Assembly: GCA_035504215.1 (NCBI GenBank)
Contig: DATJSI010000112.1
Location: forward strand, 7,461 to 71,460
Source of the DNA: Mycobacteriales bacterium
GTDB lineage: Bacteria; Actinomycetota; Actinomycetes; JAFAQI01
Length of the DNA stretch: 64,000 nt
Direction of reading: 5' to 3'
The position numbers and the translations under genes were made by a program. Shown here piece after piece: positions 1 to 57,975 of this stretch; position 1 is the first letter of the stretch, and each line of letters opens with the position of its first letter. The notes under the pieces are model-generated. The model was given only the letters and a program-made list of their open reading frames with translations. It ran no database searches and was not told where the DNA came from.

Positions 1-603
1 GACACGGTGATCCTCTATGGCGGCAACAACAACTGGTTCGCCGCGTACGCGTACTGGTACTTCAAGCTCTACGGGCACGACGCCGTGAAGCTGCTCGACG
101 GCGGACGCAAGAAGTGGGAGCTCGACAGCCGCGAGCTCGTCGACGAGGTGCCGCACCGCAAGGCGACGTCGTACACCGCGAAGGCGCCGAACAACGACAT
201 TCGCGCGTTCCGCGACGAGGTCATCGCGGCGATCGGTGTGAAGAACCTCGTCGACGTGCGCTCGCCGGATGAGTTCTCCGGCAAGCTGCTGGCCCCCGCG
301 CACCTGCCACAGGAGCAGTCCCAGCGGGCCGGTCACATCCCCACTGCGAGCAACATCCCGTGGAGTAAGGCGGCGAACGAGGACGGGACGTTCCGCGACG
401 ACGACGAGCTGAACCAGCTCTACACCGAAGCCGGCGTCGACCTGTCCAAGGACACGATCGCGTACTGCCGGATCGGTGAGCGCAGCGCGCACACGTGGTT
501 CGTCCTGCACGAGCTGCTCGGCCAGCCGAACGTCAAGAACTACGACGGTTCCTGGACGGAGTACGGCTCGCTGGTCGGCGTCCCGATCGAAAAGGACGTC
601 TGA
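1..603 (+). CDS. Thiosulfate sulfurtransferase (rhodanese, SseA/CysA-like), 5'-truncated by the window edge
   Basis: C-terminal rhodanese domain with the active-site 'CRIGERS' loop. The ORF runs to the window start. Confidence 0.8.
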   Translation, partial: DTVILYGGNNNWFAAYAYWYFKLYGHDAVKLLDGGRKKWELDSRELVDEVPHRKATSYTAKAPNNDIRAFRDEVIAAIGVKNLVDVRSPDEFSGKLLAPAHLPQEQSQRAGHIPTASNIPWSKAANEDGTFRDDDELNQLYTEAGVDLSKDTIAYCRIGERSAHTWFVLHELLGQPNVKNYDGSWTEYGSLVGVPIEKDV

Positions 604-605
604 GC

Positions 606-905
606 GTGTGCGGTTCACCGGACCAGGCGACCATCGACCGTGAGGGCATCCCTACCGGTGCGACCGTGATCCAGGGCCTGGTCTATGCCGGCGAGGCTCC
701 GGTCGCCGGGGGCTACGTCCGGCTGCTCGACTCGACCGGTGAGTTCACCGCCGAGGTCGTGACCTCGGCGACCGGTCAGTTCCGGTTCTTCGCACGCCCC
801 GGCGAGTGGACGGTGCGGGTCGTCCCCGGCGGCGGGCATGCGGCCGCGGATGAGACGGTCCAGGTCGCCGACGGGGAGATCAACGAGCTTCGCCTCGCGG
901 TGTAA
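606..905 (+). CDS. DUF1416 (SseC-like) protein
   Basis: ~99 aa with a GTG start 3 nt after the rhodanese stop. The rhodanese–DUF1416 pairing is conserved in actinobacteria (cysA2/sseC arrangement). Confidence 0.6.
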   Translation: MCGSPDQATIDREGIPTGATVIQGLVYAGEAPVAGGYVRLLDSTGEFTAEVVTSATGQFRFFARPGEWTVRVVPGGGHAAADETVQVADGEINELRLAV

Positions 906-1037
906 GTCAGGGTGCAATCGGAACGCCCAGACCCTTCGTGCCTCGTGCTGAGCGCCTTGGACCCCGGCGCCGGCATCGGTTTCCCACCGATGGCACGGAG
1001 GGTTTGGGTTGCCCTGTTCAACCCGCGCGCGGTTCGC

Positions 1038-1814
1038 TTACTTCGGTTGCATCCGGATGCCCGCGTCGAGGCGCACACACTCGGCGTTGAAGTAGTCGTT
1101 GCGCAGCATCTCGAGCGCGAGTGACGCGTACTCCTCGGCGTACCCGAGTCGCTTCGGGAACAGCACGCCGGCCCCGAGCCGTGCCTTGAACTCCTCGGCT
1201 GCCGGCCCTTCGCCGTAGATCGGCGTATCGATCAGCCCGGGCAGGATGGTGTTGACCCGGATGCCGACCACCGACAGGTCGCGGGCCACCGGCAGGGTCA
1301 TGCCGACCACTCCGCCCTTGGAGGAGGAGTACGCCGCCTGCCCGATCTGGCCGTCCTCGGCCGCAACCGACGCGGTCAGGACGATCGCCCCTCGCTGACC
1401 GTTTTCGTCGGCATCCGTCCGCCCGATCGCCGTCGCGGCGATCCGGACGCAGTCGAAGGTGCCGACCAGGTTGATCGCGATGACCTTCTTGTAGGTGTCG
1501 AGGTTGTGCGCCGTGGCGTACTCGCCGTCCTTGCCGATCGTGCGCTCCGGCCAGCCGATGCCCGCGCAGCACACCAGCGAGCGCAGCGGCGCCATGCCGG
1601 CGGCGGTGTCCACCGCGCGGATGATCGTGTCGGTGTCGGTGACGTCGGTGTGGACGAAGACACCACCGACCTCGGCGGCAAGCGCTTCGCCCTTGTCGTC
1701 CTGTACGTCGGCGACGAGGACGCCGGCGCCGTGGGACGCGAGCAACCGCGCGGTCGCGGCACCGAGACCGGAGGCCGCACCGGTCACGACGGCTGAGGTT
1801 CCCTGCAGGTCCAT
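1038..1814 (-). CDS. SDR family oxidoreductase (3-hydroxyacyl-CoA dehydrogenase type 2-like)
   Basis: N-terminal TGAASGLG Rossmann motif and a YxxxK catalytic signature (AAYSSSK). Confidence 0.85.
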   Translation of the reverse strand: MDLQGTSAVVTGAASGLGAATARLLASHGAGVLVADVQDDKGEALAAEVGGVFVHTDVTDTDTIIRAVDTAAGMAPLRSLVCCAGIGWPERTIGKDGEYATAHNLDTYKKVIAINLVGTFDCVRIAATAIGRTDADENGQRGAIVLTASVAAEDGQIGQAAYSSSKGGVVGMTLPVARDLSVVGIRVNTILPGLIDTPIYGEGPAAEEFKARLGAGVLFPKRLGYAEEYASLALEMLRNDYFNAECVRLDAGIRMQPK

Positions 1815-1983
1815 GCGGCGAACCTAGCGTCTGCGCCGAGTCCGCGCGGTGCCGGGCGAGCCGGCCGGTTCGTCCGTTGGGGCGAGCAGTGCGCGACCGA
1901 ATGGCGCAACCGGCGTCGTGAGCACCGATCCGGCCGCGGTTCGGCGGCACGTGGCCGCTGAGTCGATCTAGTCTGTAGGGCCT

Positions 1984-2895
1984 ATGACAGCGCCACAGAC
2001 GTACGAGCTCAGCTCGCTGCAGGCGCTCGAATCCGAGTCGATCCACATCTTTCGTGAGGTCGCGGCGGAGTTCGAGCGTCCCGTTCTTCTGTTCAGCGGC
2101 GGCAAGGACTCGGTCGTCATGCTGCACATCGCGTCGAAGGCGTTCTGGCCGGCGCCGATCCCGTTCCCGGTCATGCACGTCGACACCGGCCACAACTTCC
2201 CCGAGGTGCTCGAGTTCCGGGACAGCACGGTGGAGCGGCTCGGCCTGCGGCTCGTCGTCGCCAAGGTCGAGGACTCGATTGCCGCCGGGCGGGTCAAGGA
2301 GCGTCCGGACGGCATTCGCAACCCGCTGCAGACCGTGACATTGCTCGACGCGATCAACGACAACGAGTTCGACGCGGTGTTCGGCGGTGCGCGCCGCGAC
2401 GAGGAGAAGGCGCGGGCGAAGGAGCGGGTGTACAGCTTCCGCGACGAGTTCGGCCAGTGGGACCCGAAGAACCAGCGTCCCGAGCTGTGGTCGCTCTACA
2501 ACGGCCGCCATCACAAGGGCGAGCACATCCGGATCTTCCCGTTGTCGAACTGGACCGAGCTCGACATCTGGAGCTACCTGTCGGCGGAGAACGTCGAGCT
2601 GCCGAGCATCTACTTCGCGCACGAGCGCGAGGTCTTCATGCGCAACGGAATGTGGCTCCCTGTGAGCGAGTACACGATGCCGCGAGAGAGCGAAGAGATC
2701 GTGAGGTTGACGGTGCGCTACCGCACCGTCGGCGACATCCCGGTGACGGGTGCGGTCGAGTCGACTGCGGCGAACTACGACGACGTCATCGCGGAGGTGG
2801 CGGCAACCCGCATCACCGAGCGCGGCGCGACGCGCGCCGACGACCGGCTGAGCGAAGCCGCCATGGAGGATCGCAAGCGCGAGGGCTATTTCTGA
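1984..2895 (+). CDS. cysD: Sulfate adenylyltransferase subunit 2
   Basis: PAPS-reductase-like PP-loop 'LFSGGKDS'. Full-length similarity to CysD. Confidence 0.95.
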   Translation: MTAPQTYELSSLQALESESIHIFREVAAEFERPVLLFSGGKDSVVMLHIASKAFWPAPIPFPVMHVDTGHNFPEVLEFRDSTVERLGLRLVVAKVEDSIAAGRVKERPDGIRNPLQTVTLLDAINDNEFDAVFGGARRDEEKARAKERVYSFRDEFGQWDPKNQRPELWSLYNGRHHKGEHIRIFPLSNWTELDIWSYLSAENVELPSIYFAHEREVFMRNGMWLPVSEYTMPRESEEIVRLTVRYRTVGDIPVTGAVESTAANYDDVIAEVAATRITERGATRADDRLSEAAMEDRKREGYF

Positions 2896-2911
2896 TGGGG
2901 CTGCTGTTCTG

Positions 2912-4153
2912 ATGGAACTGCTGAGGTTCGCGACTGCCGGAAGTGTCGATGACGGGAAGTCGACGCTGATCGGCCGGTTGCTCTACGACACCAAGTCGAT
3001 CTTCGAGGACCAGCTCGAGGCGGTCGAGCGCACATCGCGCGACCGTGGCGACGAGCACGTCAACCTTGCGTTGCTCACCGACGGCCTGCGGGCCGAGCGC
3101 GAGCAGGGCATCACGATCGACGTCGCCTACCGCTACTTTGCAACACCCAAGCGTTCGTTCATCATCGCGGACACCCCGGGACACGTGCAGTACACCCGCA
3201 ACATGGTGACCGGCGCATCGACCGCAAGCCTGGCCCTGGTGCTCGTCGACGCTCGCAACGGCATCGTCGAGCAGTCGCGCCGGCACGCCTTTCTCGCTTC
3301 GCTGCTTCGCGTGCCGCACCTGGTGCTCTGCATCAACAAGATGGACCTCGTCGACTACGACGAGAGCGTCTTCAACCGGCTCAAGGACGAGTTCCGCTCG
3401 TTCGCCACCAAGCTCGATGTCAGCGATCTCTCGTTCATCCCGATCAGCGCGCTGCACGGCGACAACGTCGTCCACCGCTCCGAGAACATGCCGTGGTACT
3501 CCGGCTCCTCGCTGCTGCATCACCTCGAGGACGTCTACATCGCGAGCGACCGCAACCTGATCGACGTACGGTTCCCGGTCCAGTACGTGATCCGCCCGCA
3601 GTCCTCGGCGTACCCGGACTACCGCGGCTATGCCGGCCAGGTCGCCGGTGGTGTGCTCAAGCCCGGTGATGACGTCATCGTTCTGCCGAGCGGCCTGCGC
3701 TCGACCATCGAGGCCATCGACACGGCCGACGGACCGGTCGACGAGGCGTTCCCGCCGATGTCGGTGACGGTCCGCCTCACCGACAACATCGACGTCTCTC
3801 GTGGCGACATGATCTGCCGGCCGCACAACCAGCCTCGATCGACCCAGGACGTCGATGCCATGGTGTGCTGGCTCACCGACGAGCCGCTGCGACTGCGCGG
3901 CATGTACACCGTCAAGCACACGACGCGCACCGCCCGGGCTCAGATCCGCGAGGTCGACTACCGCATCGACGTCAACACGCTGCATCGCGACGAGTCGGCG
4001 GACTCCTTGTCGCTCAACGAGATCGGCCGGATCCGGCTGCGGACCACGCAGCCGCTGTTCGTCGATGAGTACCGCCGCAACCGCACCACCGGCTCGTTCC
4101 TCGTCATCGACGAAGGATCGGGTGCCACGGTCGGTGCAGCGATGGTGCTCTGA
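2912..4153 (+). CDS. cysN: Sulfate adenylyltransferase subunit 1 (GTPase), not fused to an APS kinase
   Basis: G1 'GSVDDGKST', 'DTPGH' and 'NKMD' GTPase motifs. 413 aa, so no fused CysC domain. Confidence 0.93.
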   Translation: MELLRFATAGSVDDGKSTLIGRLLYDTKSIFEDQLEAVERTSRDRGDEHVNLALLTDGLRAEREQGITIDVAYRYFATPKRSFIIADTPGHVQYTRNMVTGASTASLALVLVDARNGIVEQSRRHAFLASLLRVPHLVLCINKMDLVDYDESVFNRLKDEFRSFATKLDVSDLSFIPISALHGDNVVHRSENMPWYSGSSLLHHLEDVYIASDRNLIDVRFPVQYVIRPQSSAYPDYRGYAGQVAGGVLKPGDDVIVLPSGLRSTIEAIDTADGPVDEAFPPMSVTVRLTDNIDVSRGDMICRPHNQPRSTQDVDAMVCWLTDEPLRLRGMYTVKHTTRTARAQIREVDYRIDVNTLHRDESADSLSLNEIGRIRLRTTQPLFVDEYRRNRTTGSFLVIDEGSGATVGAAMVL

Positions 4154-4203
4154 GCCTTGCCCAAACACCCACGCCCGGTAGACGGCGCCGATCGGCGGTC
4201 AGC

Positions 4204-4968
4204 ATGAGCAGCCCGGACCAGCGATCGGACGCCGAGCTCGCTCGAGACCTCGCTATCGCATCGGGCCAGCTCCTGCTCGGCCTGCGGGACGAGCTCGGCT
4301 TCGACGATCCCTGGCGGCTTCGCGACGCGGGCGACCAACGGTCCAACGTGTTGCTGACCGAGGCCCTCGCCAAGGCCCGCCCCGATGACATCGTCCTGTC
4401 GGAGGAGTCCGCGGATGACCCCCGGCGGCTCGAGGCGGATCGGGTCTGGATCGTGGATCCGCTGGACGGCACCACCGAGTTCGGCGAGCCGGGCCGCACC
4501 GACTGGGCGGTGCACGTCGCGCTCTGGCAGCGCGGGGCCGGGCTGGTCGACGGAGCGGTGGCGCTGCCCGCCCGCGGGATGACGCTGTCGACCGCCGACC
4601 CACTGCCTGCGCTTCCCGTCCCTCACGACCCACCGCGGCTCGCGGTCAGCCGGACGCGGCGCCCGGCCTGGGTGGTCGAGGTCGCCGATCTCGTCGGTGG
4701 CGAGCTCACGCCGATCGGCAGTGCGGGCATGAAGGCGATGTCGATCCTGCTCGGCGAGGCCGATGCGTACCTGCACAGCGGGCCGATGAAGGAGTGGGAC
4801 TCCGCGGCGCCGGTCGTCGTGGCCACGCGGGCCGGACTCGACGTGAGCGATCTCGCCGGAACCCCGCTGGAGTTCAACAAGCCGTCCCGGCTGACCGACC
4901 GGTTGCTGATCTGCCAACCCGCGCTGAGGGGCCGCCTGCTCGACGCGGTCGGCGAGGTCGAGATCTAG
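4204..4968 (+). CDS. cysQ: 3'(2'),5'-bisphosphate nucleotidase (inositol monophosphatase family)
   Basis: 'WIVDPLDGT' metal-binding motif. It sits between cysN and cysC. Confidence 0.8.
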   Translation: MSSPDQRSDAELARDLAIASGQLLLGLRDELGFDDPWRLRDAGDQRSNVLLTEALAKARPDDIVLSEESADDPRRLEADRVWIVDPLDGTTEFGEPGRTDWAVHVALWQRGAGLVDGAVALPARGMTLSTADPLPALPVPHDPPRLAVSRTRRPAWVVEVADLVGGELTPIGSAGMKAMSILLGEADAYLHSGPMKEWDSAAPVVVATRAGLDVSDLAGTPLEFNKPSRLTDRLLICQPALRGRLLDAVGEVEI

Positions 4969-5957
4969 GCGCGTCGCTCCAACACCCCGAGGATCCGCTC
5001 GACCGCGTCGGCTACGGCCACCTCGGTCGTGTCGATGACGAGATCCGCGTCCTCAGGCGGCTCGTAGGGATCGTTGACCCCCGTGAAGGCCGTGATCTCG
5101 CCGGCTCGAGCCTTGGCGTACAGGCCCTTCACGTCCCGACGTTCGCACTCCTCGATCGGCGTCGAGATCCACACCAGGACGAACGAGCCGGGGCCGCCGG
5201 CGGCATCGACCGCCCGTCGTACCCATTGCCGGGTTTCGTCGTACGGCGCAATGGGCGCGCACACGGCGAGGCCGCCGTGCTTGGTCACCTCGGCAGCGAC
5301 CCAGCCGATCCGCCGGATGTTGATGTCGCGGTCCTCGCGCGAGAAGCCCAGCCCCCGGGACAGGTGCGTCCGCACGACATCTCCGTCGAGCAGCGTGACG
5401 GTGCGCGCCGTCCCGATGCGTTCGACCAGTGCACGGGCAATCGTCGACTTTCCGGAGCCGGAGAAACCGGTCAGCAGGATGGTGCGGCCATCGCCCGTGG
5501 GCTGGGGCACCGTCTCGATCTCGATCTGCGGGCCGCTGGAGTACGCCGCGGCCAGCTCGGCGGCGCGAGCCGCCGCTTCGGCCGGCTCGACGGGGATGGG
5601 GACGACCTCGCCCGCGTGCTCGGACCACGCGGTCGACCAGGCGATGTGCCGGGCATCGTCGGGGCGGACGCCGGCGGCGGGCAGGAGCAGCAGGCACTCC
5701 GCGGGGACGGAGCCGGCCGGGAGCCGGCCATCGACGGCGACAACCACCGGTTGCTCGCTCGCCACGTCCATCGGGTGCCGCCAGGCGGAGGCGGCCAGCG
5801 CGGCGATTCCGTTGTCCTCGCGCCGGGCGACCGGGGTGCCCTCCTCGTCCAGGTAGACGTCCCCGACGTCGCCGGGCAGCATCGCGCGCGGCGCCAGCCC
5901 GATCAGGATCTGGTCGAGCCGCGCCCGCTCGGCGACGCCGAGGGTGATCTGAGCCAT
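4965..5957 (-). CDS. cysC: Adenylyl-sulfate kinase with a ~150-aa N-terminal extension of unknown function
   Basis: The C-terminal 180 aa carry the P-loop 'GFSGSGKST' plus the 'LLDGD…LGF' and 'NIRR' APS-kinase motifs. The N-terminal 150 aa are unrecognised. There is a 4-nt overlap with cysQ in convergent orientation. Confidence 0.85.
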   Translation of the reverse strand: MAQITLGVAERARLDQILIGLAPRAMLPGDVGDVYLDEEGTPVARREDNGIAALAASAWRHPMDVASEQPVVVAVDGRLPAGSVPAECLLLLPAAGVRPDDARHIAWSTAWSEHAGEVVPIPVEPAEAAARAAELAAAYSSGPQIEIETVPQPTGDGRTILLTGFSGSGKSTIARALVERIGTARTVTLLDGDVVRTHLSRGLGFSREDRDINIRRIGWVAAEVTKHGGLAVCAPIAPYDETRQWVRRAVDAAGGPGSFVLVWISTPIEECERRDVKGLYAKARAGEITAFTGVNDPYEPPEDADLVIDTTEVAVADAVERILGVLERRA

Positions 5958-6007
5958 CGCCGCACAGTAGTCGGCCGGACCGGTCGACGAGCGGCGACCG
6001 CATCCCG

Positions 6008-7183
6008 GTGACCCGGACGCGCTCCTGGCAGACTGCCGTCGTGGACTTCTCCATCACCGACGAACAGCGGGCGTTTCGCGCGAGTGTCCGTGAATGGGCC
6101 GTGGCGACGGTCGCACCGGGTGCGGCCGAACGCGACCGCGAAGGCCGCTGGGATCCGGGCGTCTGGAAGTCCTTCGCCGCGCAGGGCCTCGCCGGGCTGC
6201 CGATCCCCGAGGAGTACGGCGGCGCCGGCGCGTCGATCGTGGACTGCCTGATCGCCAACGAGGCGATCGGCGAGGGCGGCCGCGACGGCGGGTTCAACCT
6301 GTCGCTCGGTGCGCACTGGGTGATCGGGTCGGTGCCGATCTGGCTGCACGGCACCGAGGAGCAGAAGCGCCGCTGGCTGCCCGGCCTCTGCGACGGCTCG
6401 CTGATCGGGGCCTGGGCGTCGACCGAGCCCGAGGCGGGTTCCGACTCGGCGGGGTTGCTGACGACCGCCGTACCGGATGGCGACAACTGGGTGCTCAACG
6501 GCAACAAGATGTTCATCACCAACGGCCCGATCGCGGACGTGTGCACCGTGCTGGCGAAGACCGGCGACAACGCGGCAAGTGCGTTCATCGTCGATACCGG
6601 TACGCCGGGCTTTCGCGTGGGACGCGAGCTGGACAAGATGGGCTGCCGATCCTCGCCGACCGCTGAGATCGCGCTGGTCGACTGCCGGGTGCCGGCGGAT
6701 GCGTTGCTCGGGACCGAAGGCACGGCGCTCTGGCAGATCGCGTTCGAGTGCTTCGACTGGGAACGCACCGTGATGATGGGCGGCGCTCTCGGCGGGATGC
6801 AGGCGACGCTCGACGCGTCGGTCGCCTATGCCAAGGAGCGCAACCAGTTCGGCCGGCCGATCGCGTCGTTCCAGGCGGTCGCGCACAAGCTCGCCGAGAT
6901 GAAGGTGCGGCTCGAGACCTGCCGAACGGCGGTCTACCGGGCGACGTACCTCAAACAAGCGGGCGCAGAGCATCAGATGGAGGCGTCGATCGCCAAGTAC
7001 CTGGTCGGGGAGCTGAGCGTGCAGAACGCCCTGGACGCGATCCAGATCCACGGCGGCTACGGCTACCTGCGTGACTTCGGCGTCGAGCGCGCGCTGCGCG
7101 ACGCGAAGCTCGGCTCGATCGGCGGCGGGACGGCCGAGATCCAGAAGCTCATCATCAGCCGGTTGCTGCTCGGTGAGCGATGA
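6008..7183 (+). CDS. Acyl-CoA dehydrogenase
   Basis: ACAD fold with the 'GGYGY' C-terminal signature. Confidence 0.9.
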   Translation: MTRTRSWQTAVVDFSITDEQRAFRASVREWAVATVAPGAAERDREGRWDPGVWKSFAAQGLAGLPIPEEYGGAGASIVDCLIANEAIGEGGRDGGFNLSLGAHWVIGSVPIWLHGTEEQKRRWLPGLCDGSLIGAWASTEPEAGSDSAGLLTTAVPDGDNWVLNGNKMFITNGPIADVCTVLAKTGDNAASAFIVDTGTPGFRVGRELDKMGCRSSPTAEIALVDCRVPADALLGTEGTALWQIAFECFDWERTVMMGGALGGMQATLDASVAYAKERNQFGRPIASFQAVAHKLAEMKVRLETCRTAVYRATYLKQAGAEHQMEASIAKYLVGELSVQNALDAIQIHGGYGYLRDFGVERALRDAKLGSIGGGTAEIQKLIISRLLLGER

Positions 7184-8709: not shown

Positions 8710-8812
8710 CGCCCGGACTCTAGTGCGTGCGCGGCGCCCGGATTGCCCGGATTGGCGGCGGTCGGGACGTAAGGCCGGGCTGGATCCCTGCCGACACACC
8801 TGGTAACAAGCG

Positions 8813-10105
8813 TTGACAACCGGTCAGGCCGAAGGAGCAGCGGTGCGATCCAGCGCGCGCGGGAAGTGGCGGTTTGCCGTCGCCGTCGCCGCACTCTGCT
8901 CGGTTGCCGCCCTCGGTGGCCCGGGTGTCGCGGCGGCGCAGGCTGCCGGCAGCTCGGCCAAGGTGACGACCTGCGCGGTGCTGTCGAAGGGCTCAACCGG
9001 CCCGGCGGTGCGCGCGATCCAGCAGGCCATCGGCAAGCGGGTCACCGGGAAGTTCGGCGCCGGCACGATCGAGAAGGTCAAGGCGTGGCAGCGCGCGCAC
9101 GAGCTTCCGGCGACCGGCCGGATCGACGCCGGCACCTGGGCGCACCTCCCGCCGTCCGGCCAGGCCGCCTGCGGTGACCGGGTGCTCGGCTCCGGAGTGG
9201 CGCTGAGCTGTGCGCTTCTTTCGAGCGGGTCGTCCGGACTCGCGGTCACGATCCTGCAGCAGATGGTCGGTACGGCGGTCAACGGGCGGTACGGCGGCCC
9301 GACGGTCGATGCCGTCGAGATGGTGCAGGCCGCCGCGGACCTGAAGGTGACCGGTACGACGAACCAGGCGACCTGGCGCGCGCTGACGCTGTTCGGCACG
9401 CCGGAGTGCTCGACCGCGACGTCGGTGCTGCCGCCGAGCGAGTCCGATGCCAAGGCACAGGCGCGAATCCGCAAGCTCGCGGCCGCGCGGCTGGCCGAGT
9501 TGGACAAGCGAGCAGGCACCTCCACGAACCCGGTCGCGCTGCAGGCGATGGCGTTCGCCAAGAGCCAGATCGGCCAGCCGTACGTCTGGGGTGGCACCGG
9601 ACCGAAGGGCTACGACTGCTCCGGGCTGCAGATGACGTCGTACCGCCATGCCGGGCTGACCATCCCGCGCACCGCGGCTGAGCAGTACGCCGGCGCCGGC
9701 CGCCGGATCCCGCTGAACGAGGCGAAGCAGGGCGACCTGTTGTTCTACGCGAGCGACGTGTCGCAGCCGTCGACGGTCTACCACGTCGCGATGTACGTCG
9801 GCGACGGGGACCTTCTCGACGCCCCGCAGACCGGCGAGAAGGTCAAGATCACGCCGATCTGGTCGACCGACCTGCTACCCGTCGTGGTCCGCCCGGTGGC
9901 TGAGCTGGCGCTCCCGGCGAAGGTCGGCGACTCCGGCTGGACGGTGAGCCAGCTTCAGCTCGACCTCAACCGGCACGGCGCCGGGCTTGCCGTCGATGGC
10001 GGTTTCGGTCCGGAGACCGAGGCGGCGGTGAAGTCGTGGCAGCAGGCGCACAAGCTGTCGGTTTCCGGGATCGTCGGCGTCACCACCTGGCTGTCGCTGA
10101 AGTAG
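8813..10105 (+). CDS. Secreted NlpC/P60 peptidoglycan endopeptidase with three PG_binding_1 domains
   Basis: Signal peptide. Three 'G…G..V…Q' peptidoglycan-binding repeats. A coiled-coil linker. An NlpC/P60 core ('PYVWGGTGPKGYDCSGL', 'GDLLFY…YHVAMYVG'). Confidence 0.85.
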   Translation: MTTGQAEGAAVRSSARGKWRFAVAVAALCSVAALGGPGVAAAQAAGSSAKVTTCAVLSKGSTGPAVRAIQQAIGKRVTGKFGAGTIEKVKAWQRAHELPATGRIDAGTWAHLPPSGQAACGDRVLGSGVALSCALLSSGSSGLAVTILQQMVGTAVNGRYGGPTVDAVEMVQAAADLKVTGTTNQATWRALTLFGTPECSTATSVLPPSESDAKAQARIRKLAAARLAELDKRAGTSTNPVALQAMAFAKSQIGQPYVWGGTGPKGYDCSGLQMTSYRHAGLTIPRTAAEQYAGAGRRIPLNEAKQGDLLFYASDVSQPSTVYHVAMYVGDGDLLDAPQTGEKVKITPIWSTDLLPVVVRPVAELALPAKVGDSGWTVSQLQLDLNRHGAGLAVDGGFGPETEAAVKSWQQAHKLSVSGIVGVTTWLSLK

Positions 10106-10483
10106 CCACGGCCTCGGCCGGGACAGGAAAGGCCCCCGGGCAGTAACCGGTCGCTCGCGGCGCGAGCGCGGTTGCCGGCTGGACGGGCCGGCTGCCCGGG
10201 GGCACGGTGACGGTCGGGGATTCGCCGGACGCTATGCGTCTCGGCTGGTCTCACACCGAGTCCGAAGACGGCGCCTAGCTGACGGTCACCTCACGTGTCC
10301 TGTAGGTACTCAACCGCGGACCACCTCCTTTCTCGTGTCCTGCCAGCCTAAGCCTTGCGGGCCCTGCTGCCGATGTTTTTTCTGTCGGCGCTGCGCCGGG
10401 TCAACCCCGCGCTGACCTGCACCGTCGGTGTTGGAGATGGGCTGACAAGGCGACGACGTGCGCCCTAATCTGGAGCGGCTTTC

Positions 10484-53919: not shown

Positions 53920-55353
53920 TTAGAGGTCGGCGAGCTGCGCTGCCAGCCACTCGTGCGGCGGCATGGCGATCGCAGCCTTGCGCAGCTCCGCATGTCGCCG
54001 GGTCCGCTCCGCCTCGGGCATCACGAGTGCGTCGTGCAGCGCCTGCGCGGTCGCGGCGACGTCGTACGGATCGACCAGGAGCGCGGCGCCTCCGAGCTCG
54101 TCGGCGGCTCCTGCTTCTCGCGAGAGCACGAGCACCGCGTCGTCGGTCAGCACGATCGCTTCCTTCGCGACCAGGTTCATCCCGTCGCGCACCGGGTTGA
54201 CCAGTACGACGTCTCCCGCGCCCAGAACCGCGAGTGACTCGGCGTAGTCGTTGCGAACCTGGAGCTCGACGGGGGTCCAGCCGGCCGTGCCGAGCTCAGC
54301 GTTGATCAGCTTCGCGAGATCCTCGACGTACGCCGTGTAGTCCCGGTAGTCGGCGATGTCCTGGCGACTCGGGTAGGCCATCGCCACGTGCACGACGTGC
54401 TGCCGGTGCTCGGGATGGTCGTCGAGCAACCGGCGAAACGCTTCGAGGCCGCGGGCGAGGTTCTTCGACGGCTCGGTGCGGTCAACGCGGACGATCGCCT
54501 TCCGATCGGCCAGCTCGGCCTTGAGCGCATCCCGGTCGGCGGCGACGTCCGGTTGCGCCGCCCGCTCGAGCAGCGGCTCCGGATCGACCCCGAGCGGGTA
54601 GATCCGCACGGCCGTCGTTCGCCCACCGTGACGCACCGAGCTGTCGTCGTGGTCGACGTCGAGCAGCCGCGCGCAACAGGCGATGAAGTCCTTCGCCCAT
54701 CGCGGCGAGTGGAAGCCGAGCGTGTCGGCACCAAGCATCCCGGTGAGCAACGCGCGGGCTACGTCGTCGGGCAGCAGCGCGAAGTTCTCCGGAGTCGACC
54801 ACGGGGTGTGGGTGAACAGCCCGATGCGCACGTCCGGCCGTCGGCTGCGGAGCAGCTCGGGCAGCAGCGTGAGGTGGTAGTCCTGGGCGAGGACCCGCGC
54901 GCCGGGCGCGGCTTCCTCGGCGACCGCATCCGCAAACTCGGTGTTGTAGTCGACGTACCCGGTCCATGCCCGGCGCCACTCCGCGTTCTCGTAGTCCGGC
55001 GGGTTCGCGTTGTCGATCAACCCGTGGTGCAGGTACCACAAGGTGGTGTTGGAGACGACGTTGTACGCCGCTTCGTAGGTCGCGGGTTCGATCGGCAGCA
55101 TCCTGACCGCGCCGCCGGTGTCGTGCCCGGCGCGGTCGAGCCGCCCGGCGGGAGCCGACGCGGCGACTGCGCGGTCGTCATCGCTCAGCGCGGCACAGAC
55201 CCATACCGTCGCGCCCTCTGACCGCACGGCGGCCAGGCCGGAGACGAGGCCGCCGCCCCCGCGCGACTCGGTGACCCGGCCGTCGTCGTCGCGGTGGAAG
55301 GCGATCGGCCCGCGGTTGGACGCGATGACGATCTTGGCCATGCCGCTTGTCAT
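53920..55353 (-). CDS. otsA: Alpha,alpha-trehalose-phosphate synthase (UDP-forming)
   Basis: GT20 family ('IVIASNRGPI', 'YHLTLLPELLR'). Start set at MTSGMAKIV, which removes a spurious 90-aa extension of the ORF. Confidence 0.92.
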   Translation of the reverse strand: MTSGMAKIVIASNRGPIAFHRDDDGRVTESRGGGGLVSGLAAVRSEGATVWVCAALSDDDRAVAASAPAGRLDRAGHDTGGAVRMLPIEPATYEAAYNVVSNTTLWYLHHGLIDNANPPDYENAEWRRAWTGYVDYNTEFADAVAEEAAPGARVLAQDYHLTLLPELLRSRRPDVRIGLFTHTPWSTPENFALLPDDVARALLTGMLGADTLGFHSPRWAKDFIACCARLLDVDHDDSSVRHGGRTTAVRIYPLGVDPEPLLERAAQPDVAADRDALKAELADRKAIVRVDRTEPSKNLARGLEAFRRLLDDHPEHRQHVVHVAMAYPSRQDIADYRDYTAYVEDLAKLINAELGTAGWTPVELQVRNDYAESLAVLGAGDVVLVNPVRDGMNLVAKEAIVLTDDAVLVLSREAGAADELGGAALLVDPYDVAATAQALHDALVMPEAERTRRHAELRKAAIAMPPHEWLAAQLADL

Positions 55354-55419
55354 TGCACCATCGCCCCGACAGTAACCGAACCGCGTATGGCAGACTTGCC
55401 CTGCGCGACCTTCGGGTCG

Positions 55420-55535
55420 CGCACTCATCAAGAGGGGCAGAGGGACCGGCCCGGTGAAGCCCCGGCAACCACCCGATCGCGGGCAGGTGCCAACTCCGGC
55501 TCGGACGCGGATCGCGTCTCGGGAAAGATGAGGAC
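55420..55535 (+). promoter_or_regulatory. SAM-I (S-box) type riboswitch aptamer in the leader of the threonine-synthase-like gene
   Basis: Sequence 'CUCAUCAAGAGGGGCAGAGGGACCGGCCCGGUGAAGCCCCGGCAACC…GGUGCCAACUCCGGC…GAAAGAUGAG' matches the SAM-I consensus core. The P1 3' strand abuts the RBS GGAAGG and the ATG at 55547. Confidence 0.8.
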
Positions 55536-55546
55536 GGAAGGTTGCA

Positions 55547-56797
55547 ATGACCTCGTTGATCGACCGCCCGGCGGCGCAGTTCGGCTCCGCCGAAGCACTG
55601 GTATGCCGTGAGTGCGGTGCCACCTACCCGCTCGGGCCGACCCACGTGTGCGAGCTCTGCTTCGGTCCCCTCGAGATCGCCTACGACCCCGACGCACTGC
55701 GCGCCGTGACGCGCGCGAGTATCGAGGCCGGCCCGCAGTCAATGTGGCGCTATCGCGGTCTGCTACCGGTCGAACCACTCGTGGACCTTCGAGTCGGAAT
55801 GACCCGCCTGGTGCCGGCGCCCAACCTCGCGCGCGAGCTCGGCATGCGGTCGTTGTGGGTGAAGGACGACAGCGGCAACCCGACGCACTCGTTCAAGGAC
55901 CGAGTGGTCGCGGTGGCGGCGTCGGCCGCCCGGGCACTCGGCTACCGCGTGCTCGCCTGCGCCTCCACCGGCAACCTCGCGCACGCGGTCGCCGCCGCTG
56001 CGGCGAACGCCGGTCTGCGTTCGGTCGTCTTCATCCCCCATGACCTCGAGGCCGGCAAGTCGGTGACGACCGCGGTCTACGGCGGGACTCTGGTCGCGGT
56101 CGAAGGTTCGTACGACGAGGTCAACCGGCTGTCCGCCGAGATCGCCGGCGAGCTGCCGTGGGGCTTCGTCAACGTCAACGTCCGCCCGTTCTACGCCGAG
56201 GGCTCGAAGACGGTCGGCTTCGAGATCGCCGAACAGCTCGGTTGGCGGTTGCCCGAGCAGGTCGTCATCCCGATCGCGTCCGGCTCGTTGCTCACGAAGG
56301 TCGACAAGGCGTGGCGCGAGCTGAGCCGGCTCGGTCTCGTGGACCCGACGGCGTACCGGGTGTTCGGTGCGCAGTCGACCGGCTGCTCGCCGGTTGCGGC
56401 GGCGTTTCGTGCGGGACACGACGTGGTCGCGCCGGTGCGGCCGACCGGCATCGCGAAGTCACTCGCGATCGGCAACCCCGCCGATGGTCCCTATGCGCTG
56501 GACGTCGTGCGACGTACCGGTGGGGTGATCGAGGACGTCGGCGACACCGAAATCGTCGACGGCATCCGGCTGCTCGCGCGTACGACCGGAATATTCGGCG
56601 AGACGGCAGGTGGCGTCACGGTCGCCACTTTGCGCAAGCTGCTCGAGACCGGGCGGCTGGATCCCGAGGCCGAGACGGTCATCCTGAACACCGGTGACGG
56701 GCTGAAGACGCTGGACGCCGTTGTCGACGCCGTGGGCCCGACCGTCACGATCGCTCCGACATTGCAGGCGTTTCGAGAGGCGGGGTTGAGCGAATGA
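55547..56797 (+). CDS. Threonine-synthase-family PLP enzyme with an N-terminal Zn-ribbon (candidate MetM-type O-phosphohomoserine-dependent homocysteine synthase)
   Basis: 'CRECG…CELC' zinc ribbon. PLP-lysine motif 'HSFKDR'. ThrC fold. Preceded by a SAM riboswitch and followed by a sulfur-carrier gene. Confidence 0.8.
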   Translation: MTSLIDRPAAQFGSAEALVCRECGATYPLGPTHVCELCFGPLEIAYDPDALRAVTRASIEAGPQSMWRYRGLLPVEPLVDLRVGMTRLVPAPNLARELGMRSLWVKDDSGNPTHSFKDRVVAVAASAARALGYRVLACASTGNLAHAVAAAAANAGLRSVVFIPHDLEAGKSVTTAVYGGTLVAVEGSYDEVNRLSAEIAGELPWGFVNVNVRPFYAEGSKTVGFEIAEQLGWRLPEQVVIPIASGSLLTKVDKAWRELSRLGLVDPTAYRVFGAQSTGCSPVAAAFRAGHDVVAPVRPTGIAKSLAIGNPADGPYALDVVRRTGGVIEDVGDTEIVDGIRLLARTTGIFGETAGGVTVATLRKLLETGRLDPEAETVILNTGDGLKTLDAVVDAVGPTVTIAPTLQAFREAGLSE

Positions 56798-57069
56798 TCA
56801 CCGTGCGGGTTCCGACCATTTTGCGGTCGCTCACCGGCGGCGCGGCCGAGGTGTCCGTCGACGAGGCGTCGACCCTGGCCGACGTACTGGACCGGATGGA
56901 GGCCGAGCACCCCGGCTTCCGCACCCGCGTCCTCGACGACGACGGCAAGCTGCGCCGGTTCGTGAATGTCTATGTCGACGACGACGATGTGCGTTTCGCC
57001 GAGGGGTTGCAGACACCGACGCCCGCTGGAACTACCGTCTCGATCATCCCAGCGGTCGCCGGCGGCTGA
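56794..57069 (+). CDS. MoaD/ThiS-family sulfur-carrier protein (C-terminal Gly-Gly). Candidate MetO/CysO-like
   Basis: 91 aa ending '…IIPAVAGG'. 4-nt overlap with the upstream ThrC-like gene. Confidence 0.7.
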   Translation: MITVRVPTILRSLTGGAAEVSVDEASTLADVLDRMEAEHPGFRTRVLDDDGKLRRFVNVYVDDDDVRFAEGLQTPTPAGTTVSIIPAVAGG

Positions 57070-57085
57070 TTGCGGGACGGGCCGG

Positions 57086-57661
57086 CTACTTGCTGGACTT
57101 CTTCGACAGGCGGAACACCTGGGCGTAGACCAGATGCGCCTTGTAGATGTGCTGGCGCTGCACGTGGGTGCCGGTGTGCGGCGCCACCCACCAGTAGTCG
57201 TGCCCGTCATAGATGCCGACATGCGAGACGTAGCCGTTGTCGACGAAGACCAGGTCGCCCGGCTTGAGGTGGCGGCGGCGGATGTGGTGCAACGAGTGGT
57301 ACTGCTCCGCGGCGTTGTGCGGCAGCGAGATGTGGACTGCGTGCAGAAACACGAAGCGGACCAGGCCGGAGCAGTCGAAGGCATGCGGGCCGTCGGCGCC
57401 GTACTGGTAGGGCTTGCCCTTCTGGCGGGCGGCTTCGCGCAGCACCCGGCGTACGTCGTTGTGGAGCTGCGTGAGGGTCATCGCACCGGTCGCACGCGCC
57501 GGGGCGGCATGCGGCGCGGTAGCGGCCAGCGGGGTCGTGGTGCTGGAGCCGGGCTCGGCGTTCTGGGTCTGCGCGAACGCGGGGCTCGCGGCCAGGCCGA
57601 GGCAGAGGAACAGGGATGCGGCGAGGATGCCCAAGCGGGCAGACAGGGTCGCACGGAACAT
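57086..57661 (-). CDS. Secreted NlpC/P60-family peptidoglycan hydrolase
   Basis: Signal peptide. 'PYQYGADGPHAFDCSGL' and 'GDLVF…SHVGIY' catalytic Cys/His regions. Confidence 0.85.
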   Translation of the reverse strand: MFRATLSARLGILAASLFLCLGLAASPAFAQTQNAEPGSSTTTPLAATAPHAAPARATGAMTLTQLHNDVRRVLREAARQKGKPYQYGADGPHAFDCSGLVRFVFLHAVHISLPHNAAEQYHSLHHIRRRHLKPGDLVFVDNGYVSHVGIYDGHDYWWVAPHTGTHVQRQHIYKAHLVYAQVFRLSKKSSK

Positions 57662-57975
57662 GAAGGCGCTCTCCGACGCCGACCGGGTTAGCTGTCGGGT
57701 TCGGACCGTGGCTAGCCCGGCCGCCGGAGCGGCTTCACCCCAAGAGCGCGTGCCCCGCGCTCGTGTGCTGTTGGGTCCCCGATCCTGTCCGTGGGTTCGG
57801 TGTACGCACTCCGCGGACAGGTTTGGCGAACGGAGGCGACGGTCACCCGGCTGGGTGGCCCCGCATACCTTAGGTCGGCGTCCGGCCCGCCGTCCTTGAA
57901 TCCGGGATTTTTTCCGGGCGTGTCCGGTTTACCCGCCGGTCGCCCGCGGGAGCCGGCCTCGACGCCGGCGGCCGT

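Follow-up and report, generated by a model that had tools for sequence, protein, structure and literature searches.

Which step of metabolism is placed under the control of S-adenosylmethionine (SAM) when a SAM-I riboswitch precedes a gene that public databases call threonine synthase? The question is raised by a locus of an uncultured member of the Mycobacteriales, found within a 64,000-nucleotide stretch of contig DATJSI010000112.1 (assembly GCA_035504215.1). This whole stretch is referred to below as the window, and all coordinates are positions in it. The locus consists of a riboswitch leader, a gene for a pyridoxal phosphate (PLP) enzyme of the threonine synthase (ThrC) family and a gene for a small sulfur-carrier protein. 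We consider it probable that the riboswitch represses translation of an operon for a MetM-type homocysteine synthase and its MetO-type carrier when SAM is plentiful. Here, we describe the aptamer and its conservation, its coupling to the ribosome-binding site (RBS), the identity of the two proteins, and the different leader architectures found in related actinobacteria.

The SAM-I aptamer of the leader

The RNA features on which the argument depends are as follows.

55422-55534, + strand: SAM-I riboswitch aptamer (RF00162), 81.1 bits in cmscan against a gathering score of 44.4
55424-55429, + strand: 5' strand of helix P1, CUCAUC, from the cmscan alignment
55527-55532, + strand: 3' strand of helix P1, GAUGAG, pairing with 55424-55429, from the cmscan alignment and the sequence
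55402-55423, + strand: P0 hairpin, UGCGCGACC-UUCG-GGUCGCGCA, from the minimum free energy (MFE) fold and its conservation in the closest leaders
55536-55541, + strand: Shine-Dalgarno (SD) sequence GGAAGG, read from the sequence, 5 nt before the ATG at 55547

The Rfam cmscan of the whole window covers model positions 1-108 of 108 at this leader (E = 1.6e-17), and the aptamer scores 117.3 bits under a family-specific covariance model, R1. The cmscan alignment shows helices P1-P4 arranged around a four-way junction that has the conserved bases, P3 being short, and neither the 10 closest leaders nor 13 diverse ones differ from the window in the 5' strand of P1. SAM-I aptamers require a pseudoknot between the P2 loop and the joining region J3/4; in the window the sequence reads CCGG in the P2 loop (55446-55449), complementary to CCGG in J3/4 (55496-55499). 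RF00162 is the best match of clan CL00012 at the leader. Overlapping matches of the same clan are dropped by the Rfam scan, and SAM-I therefore outscores SAM-IV and SAM-I/IV here. Compared with SAM-IV (RF00634), the leader differs in possessing P4 and in a helix between P3 and the 3' tail that is at the chance level. The window leader is a genuine full-length SAM-I aptamer, and it is predicted to bind SAM. The earlier note on this DNA had recognized a SAM-I aptamer core in the leader and had named the covariance-model comparison beforehand as a possible refutation; the full-length match, far above the SAM-I threshold and the best of its clan, bears the claim out.

Conservation of the locus in related genomes

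The comparison drew on 167 related loci (numbered with the prefix L below), comprising 80 from genomes, 80 from metagenomes and the 7 closest relatives found by exact protein look-up. The genome scan used one genome per species, and the best 80 of at least 592 loci were taken, at 63-80% protein identity. These genome loci come from Frankia, Kribbella, Actinomadura, Streptosporangium, Streptomyces, Micromonospora, Blastococcus, Nakamurella, Lentzea and many metagenome-assembled genomes (MAGs). In all 12 diverse loci examined, Rfam places RF00162 directly 5' of the gene, and a survey covariance model built from the aptamers of the diverse loci finds exactly one aptamer 5' of the gene in all 81 sequences formed by the window and the 80 genome loci. 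Every metagenome locus with enough upstream DNA also has the aptamer, so that the link between aptamer and metM holds in all of the approximately 155 loci with enough upstream DNA, and the distance from aptamer end to start codon is 6-19 nt wherever it can be placed.

In 112 of the 153 scorable loci (73%) the next gene is ThiS-like, and in 37 of them the two genes overlap by 4 nt. The remaining 41 loci, without an adjacent ThiS-like gene, belong to Frankia, Geodermatophilaceae, Micromonospora, Lentzea, Jatrophihabitans and others (examples are L003, L006, L064, L069, L063 and L053). The universal link of metM to the riboswitch, set beside the 73% link to metO, raises the question of which sulfur donor serves where metO is absent. 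The gene order otsB-otsA, divergent from riboswitch-metM(-metO), with groEL beyond, recurs across genera (GroEL in 48 and OtsA in 45 of the 81 loci), a recurrence that suggests an ancient locus passed on by vertical descent. The recurring open reading frame (ORF) families of the 81 loci included no conserved neighbor of the MoeZ, Mec, thrB or hom type, the commonest unidentified families being inspected by eye. One metagenome contig, L153, has a duplication (257-405 and 743-891) of a segment made up of the promoter box, the aptamer and the 27 nt that open metM. The upstream copy is joined to a fragment resembling, by eye, the C-terminus of a cyclophilin-type isomerase, and the arrangement reflects either a rearrangement or faulty assembly.

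Coupling of the aptamer to the ribosome-binding site

In the window, the last P1 pair is separated from the SD sequence by 3 nt (GAC), and the 3' end of P1 and the end of the aptamer model lie 14 nt and 12 nt, respectively, before the ATG at 55547. The SD sequence of the closest leaders is GGAAGG or GAAAGG, with its position kept. No terminator-like site was found in 55200-57300. Because of the aptamer-RBS geometry and its conservation across leaders, translational control of metM-metO by the riboswitch is strongly implied. The earlier note had placed the 3' strand of P1 beside the RBS and had deduced translational control; the placement stands, and the control is implied by the geometry, although not by any conserved sequestering hairpin.

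Two folding results count against this mode of control. Forcing P1 and blocking it in ViennaRNA gave no consistent shift in RBS accessibility in the window and nine close relatives, and the MFE hairpin at 55536-55569, which covers the SD sequence and ATG of the window, was rejected, as it is not conserved in the closest leaders. A search of the window leader for an SD-sequestering switch found none, and no anti-SD element that pairs with the SD sequence. Three further candidates were set aside. The pairing of GAUGAGG, at the 3' strand of P1, with CCUCGUU (55551-55557) occurs in the window only among the aligned leaders; the complementarity CGAUCG (6 bp) between the P3 loop and the tail of the window is at the chance level (p = 0.43); and the CCUUC of the P0 loop, as an anti-SD, reads CCCUC in relatives with the SD sequence unchanged.

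Since the folds with P1 forced or blocked are inconsistent and the ATG hairpin is unconserved, our best guess is that the liganded aptamer would act on the RBS of the window clade by steric blocking. The preQ1-I riboswitch of Carnobacterium antarcticum regulates translation sterically and tolerates spacers of up to 10 nt (PMC10018353). In this riboswitch and in the SAM-I riboswitch of Xanthomonas campestris (PMC7270179), as in the window, the aptamer stands just 5' of the RBS, there is no terminator and control is presumably exerted at initiation. In contrast to both, the window leader has no identified SD-pairing element, and its P0, set on P1, lies outside the SAM-I consensus.

Untranslated leaders are common targets of Rho and of RNases, and the window clade offers no demonstrable conserved helix that sequesters the SD sequence; both points favor a riboswitch that acts chiefly via Rho-dependent termination or mRNA decay and not by blocking initiation. 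We regard this explanation as unlikely, although it survives better than the two considered below. The leader has no intrinsic terminator and its 12 nt leaves no room for one, the start codon keeps its distance of 6-19 nt in approximately 155 leaders, a covarying helix in relatives covers part of the SD sequence and spacer, and any effect of Rho or decay would most simply be secondary to blocked translation.

The enzyme and its sulfur carrier

The coding features of the operon are as follows.

55547-56797, + strand: metM-like gene for a 416-residue ThrC-family PLP enzyme (PALP, PF00291, 217.8 bits; TIGR00260, 248.8 bits)
55604-55660, + strand: four-cysteine motif CRECG-x11-CELC, codons C20-C38, from alignment A1
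55895-55897, + strand: codon of K117 in the SFKDR motif, the PLP Schiff-base lysine position by alignment with 1uim, 2zsj, 6cgq and 2d1f
56794-57069, + strand: metO-like gene for a 91-residue sulfur carrier of the ThiS/MoaD/CysO type (ThiS, PF02597, 57.6 bits; NF041918, 66.4 against 60)
57061-57066, + strand: codons of Gly90-Gly91, followed by the stop; the C-terminus reads ...PAVAGG*

The cysteines C20, C23, C35 and C38 of the enzyme form a CxxC-x11-CxxC motif, all four being invariant in the 15 close homologues of alignment A1, and the motif is also seen in 24 diverse homologues. It suggests an N-terminus of the zinc-ribbon type; an AlphaFold2 model from the 15 sequences of A1 had a mean pLDDT (predicted local distance difference test) of 37.8 and was unusable for this question. 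The earlier description of a ThrC-family enzyme with an N-terminal zinc ribbon thus holds for the family and for the conserved cysteines, the ribbon itself being indicated by the motif.

The start of metO overlaps the stop of metM in ATGA. The carrier ends in an exposed Gly-Gly with no extra residue to trim, which agrees with the GG-terminated MoaD/ThiS-like protein of the earlier note. Among the adjacent homologues, 96 of 112 end in GG, and most others carry one extra residue (GGC, GGS, GGQ or GGT). GGC carriers occur in L055, L056, L057, L074, L075, L108, L117, L119, L128 and L145, and other extended forms in L066 (GGQ), L150 (GGT), L050 (GGCR) and L081 (GGS), the last being 88% identical to the window carrier with its bare GG. 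Carriers with residues after Gly-Gly would need a Mec-type hydrolase for exposure.

The best solved relatives of the carrier are 4n6e_B and M. tuberculosis CysO, 3dwg_C (E = 5.4e-21), and the carrier is nearest to CysO, a proven thiocarboxylate carrier. PDB entry 4n6e is the BexX-CysO complex of 2-thiosugar biosynthesis. In the CysM/CysO/Mec system of M. tuberculosis (3DWG), as in the window, a Gly-Gly carrier feeds a fold-type II PLP enzyme acting on an O-phospho amino acid. These relatives, together with the sulfate-activation genes at 1972-6053 of the same window, lend some support to the idea that the pair makes another sulfur compound by thiocarboxylate chemistry, such as cysteine from O-phosphoserine in the manner of CysM/CysO, or a thio-metabolite. 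We judge this to be improbable. The PLP partner in the window is of the ThrC family and not of the CysK/CysM family, and its predicted substrate is O-phosphohomoserine rather than O-phosphoserine; control by a SAM riboswitch, which distinguishes it from CysM/CysO, indicates the methionine/SAM branch. The two-gene locus is a syntenic part of the core genome with no biosynthetic cluster around it, and the enzyme scores 53.7 with the cysteate synthase model, whose cut-off is 324.9.

A probable MetM-type enzyme rather than canonical threonine synthase

The canonical threonine synthases of known structure (1UIM, 2ZSJ, 6CGQ and 2D1F) share the fold family and the SFKDR PLP-lysine motif with the window enzyme, and O-phosphohomoserine is the likely common substrate. 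Over the shared catalytic core, however, the window enzyme is only 33.8% identical to ThrC of M. tuberculosis (2D1F), 39.2% to that of Thermus, 35.1% to that of Aquifex and 32.7% to that of Bacillus, whereas the latter three are each approximately 60% identical to the M. tuberculosis protein. Its identity to the riboswitch-linked homologues is 63-80%, with 63-67% for the Streptomyces group and 80% for another Mycobacteriales MAG. A neighbor-joining tree unites all riboswitch-linked proteins in one clade, separated by a long branch from the four solved ThrCs with a bootstrap of 100/100. In HMMER alignments the window protein has N-V-N-V-R-P-F-Y-A-E-G-S-K-T in place of the ThrC loop N-S-V-N-P-x-R-[IL]-E-G-Q-K-T. 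This loop presumably carries the arginine that grips the substrate phosphate in the Thermus enzyme. Relative to the solved ThrCs the window protein also has an insertion near residues 282-296 and an extra 60-residue N-terminus with the four cysteines; the loop and the insertion are observed differences and no proof of function. Its genomic context, otsA and groEL, is unlike hom-thrC-thrB. This evidence supports the assignment of the window enzyme to the MetM clade. That the enzyme is no canonical ThrC, and that phylogeny should place it outside the genuine threonine synthases, had both been put forward in the earlier note, and the identities and the tree agree.

In Streptomyces albulus, MetM and MetO make homocysteine from O-phospho-L-homoserine according to passages of PMC12172450, which, together with the GapMind 2026 preprint, cite the original work (Hasebe, Adachi, Maruyama, Hamano 2024, Appl Environ Microbiol 90:e01247-24). 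The S. albulus pathway is given in the corresponding part of the preprint as MetO, Mec, MoeZ and MetM, and metM is described in the PMC12172450 passages as preceded by a SAM riboswitch. Like the window, S. albulus thus has a ThrC-homologous PLP enzyme, then a ThiS-like carrier, with a SAM riboswitch 5' of them. Homologues of the Streptomyces group in our survey have the same architecture, with enzymes 63-67% and carriers 64-70% identical to those of the window. Orthology of the window enzyme to S. albulus MetM would rest on these Streptomyces homologues, which share the architecture, and on identity within Streptomyces. In a passage of a 2026 preprint, B. subtilis ThrC and MetM are 33% identical, for which the Streptomyces homologue of this survey gives 33.9%. 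The window differs from the Streptomyces systems in its bare GG carrier, several Streptomyces-type carriers ending in GGC, and from their leaders in its short P3, its P0 and the lack of a P3-tail helix; unlike S. albulus, its organism is an uncultured Mycobacteriales MAG known here from sequence. The passages of a census of M. tuberculosis PLP enzymes list one ThrC and CysM and name no MetM-type enzyme. As the window system matches S. albulus MetM/MetO, riboswitch included, it is probably the published MetM/MetO with its SAM riboswitch in a new lineage and therefore not a new system. The proposal that a ThrC-like enzyme paired with a GG carrier denotes a MetM/MetO pathway is supported by this match to the published trio.

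Several observations pull in the other direction. The metM-like protein scores 248.8 bits with the thrC model TIGR00260, above the NCBIfam cut-off of 167.1, which explains the public annotation as threonine synthase; the other listed threonine synthase models all fall below their cut-offs, the best being NF006050 (267.9 against 303). A 51.6%-identical homologue from Microcystis, without a riboswitch, acted as a threonine synthase/deaminase and not as a full MetM, according to passages of PMC12172450. No ThiF/MoeZ or JAMM protein was found by Pfam in a scan that covered most of the ORFs of the 64-kb window supported by third-position GC content (GC3). The search for a MoeZ/ThiF-type activator and a JAMM protease that the earlier note had proposed therefore came out negative within the 64-kb window alone, a scope that says little about the organism.

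Least probable of all is that the enzyme is a genuine threonine synthase, incidentally regulated by SAM and accompanied by a small protein unrelated to its chemistry, as the TIGR00260 score, the annotation of all homologues and the in vitro activity described for the cyanobacterial homologue in PMC12172450 would suggest, since this does not fit the 33-39% identity to solved ThrCs, the fully supported split of the clades by a long branch, the replaced loop, the tight coupling to a Gly-Gly carrier gene in 73% of loci, the homocysteine synthase reported for the Streptomyces orthologue in the cited parts of PMC12172450 and of the GapMind 2026 preprint, or the direction of control, in that SAM-OFF regulation of thrC would send O-phosphohomoserine to methionine at high SAM, the wrong direction.

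The identical public protein and all of the homologues are annotated as threonine synthase, and a single 90%-identity cluster, with 1810 members, takes in two of the Streptomyces homologues; every listed member of the cluster bears this name. The value for annotation lies here, with the protein and thousands of relatives publicly called threonine synthase, and placement in the MetM clade alters the reconstruction of methionine and sulfur metabolism for the window MAG and for much of the Actinomycetota.

Proposed mechanism of SAM-dependent repression

In the mechanism that we propose for the MetM-type operon, the C-terminal Gly-Gly of MetO would be adenylated and converted to a thiocarboxylate by a MoeZ-type E1-like enzyme encoded elsewhere. 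The ThrC-like PLP enzyme would then convert O-phosphohomoserine and the thiocarboxylated carrier (MetO-COSH) to homocysteine, the precursor of methionine and SAM. When SAM accumulates, its binding would lock P1 (55424-55429 with 55527-55532), which in the window clade would stack end to end on P0. With P1 ending 3 nt from the SD sequence and 14 nt from the ATG, and stacked on P0, the compact liganded fold would be expected to keep the 30S subunit off the RBS. Repression would probably extend to metO, which is predicted to be translationally coupled to metM via the ATGA overlap.

Leader architectures in the window clade and in relatives

The P0 hairpin of the window abuts the 5' strand of P1 with zero unpaired nt between them. 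It is kept in 9 of the 10 closest leaders, with two pairs altered on both sides, and is largely restricted to the window clade, most other lineages being without it. Hairpins of this type have 9 bp and a UUCG or CUCG loop and occur in L081, L082, L084, L086-L088, L161-L165 and L167. P3 is short in the 10 aligned leaders of the window clade. In lineages without P0, a conserved box, ACAACU(G/U)(A/C)AUAC, is found a few nt 5' of P1, and a similar GGCAGACUUG is retained 5' of the P0 hairpin in the window clade, where it may represent the -10 or transcription start site region.

A different arrangement is found in approximately 70 of 155 leaders, in which GCGAGGCC is found on the distal 3' side of an extended P3 and GGCCUCGC between the SD sequence and the start codon. 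The leaders with this helix come from Streptomyces and allies, Streptosporangiales, Nakamurella, Jatrophihabitans, and MAGs of the Pseudonocardiales and Nanopelagicales; the loci include L001, L016, L021, L022, L047, L055, L057, L059, L060, L077, L133 and approximately 60 others. In every case the P3 strand is 11-16 nt away from the 3' terminus of P3, with the tail strand 2-5 nt past the aptamer. The helix GCGAGGCC::GGCCUCGC takes in the last two G of the SD sequence along with the spacer, and at some loci it extends over the start codon. The pairing joins GCGGGGGCC with GGCCCUCGC in L022, CGCGGGGUC with GACCUCGCG in L077, UGCGAGGCG with CGCCUCGCA in L057, and UCACGAGGCCU with AGGCCUCGUGA, GUG start codon included, in L133.

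For this helix, 45 of the 155 leaders outscore 95% of shuffled versions of themselves, against an expectation of approximately 8. When 55 distinct leaders are compared, pairing in the nine-pair helix reaches 90%, and at four of its pairs both partners have changed (for example, GC 40, AU 6, GU 5); because these leaders were preselected for the helix, the percentage paired is inflated but the compensatory changes are not. The helix has a covariation score of 0.169; shuffles give 0.135, with 0 of 500 as high as the helix, and slid registers give 0.04-0.06. The helix is absent from the window at 55470-55546, where the best match has 6 bp (p = 0.43).

In SAM-IV riboswitches the pseudoknot PK-2 joins the P3 loop to the tail that follows P1 on its 3' side (PMC6890682). 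The P3-tail helix of the relatives has the same topology as PK-2 of SAM-IV (RF00634), but in contrast to SAM-IV these leaders retain P4 and score as SAM-I, and the window is without the helix. A P3-tail helix in leaders that retain P4 is possibly an evolutionary link between SAM-I and SAM-IV. Leaders of Kribbella and the Nocardioidaceae (L012, L014, L008 and L031) have an SD sequence GGAGG followed directly by CCUCC and the start codon, in the form of a GGAGG-GAA-CCUCC hairpin or the palindrome GGAGGCCUCC. As this platform is distinct, the leader family has at least three RBS wirings and offers a compact natural set for one aptamer class wired to the RBS in different ways. We suggest, tentatively and with more doubt than conviction, that the metM leaders of the Actinomycetota form an undescribed architectural series of SAM-I riboswitches with tertiary or steric coupling to the RBS in place of a classical sequestor hairpin, in which most lineages would have the P3-tail helix over the RBS, whereas the window clade lost it and has P0 and a pure steric block instead. 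Only the leader architecture across the family may be new.

Genomic neighborhood in the window

The surroundings of metM are core actinobacterial chromosome. Upstream of it lie cysS, an rRNA methylase gene, gdh, a DUF3263 gene, otsB and the divergent otsA (53920-55344, - strand), and downstream of metO a convergent NlpC/P60 gene is followed by groEL. A sulfur-assimilation cluster at 1-6053, 50 kb from the metM operon, contains an SseA-type two-domain rhodanese cut by the window start, cysD, cysN, a cysQ-like phosphatase and, on the opposite strand, cysC, with the sulfate-activation genes at 1972-6053. The rhodanese ORF (1-603) was considered as the C-terminus of a MoeZ and rejected, as NCBIfam aligns it with 3-mercaptopyruvate sulfurtransferase.

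Two other RNA elements accompany NlpC/P60 genes in the window. The gene that converges on metO (57086-57661, - strand), with 16 nt between the stops and no predicted terminator, is preceded by a cyclic di-AMP (ydaO-type) riboswitch (RF00379, 61.6 bits, 57662-57812, - strand). The actinobacterial small RNA Ms_IGR-5 (RF02471, 90.9 bits) at 10124-10338 (- strand) adjoins a second NlpC/P60 peptidoglycan-binding gene at 8807-10105.

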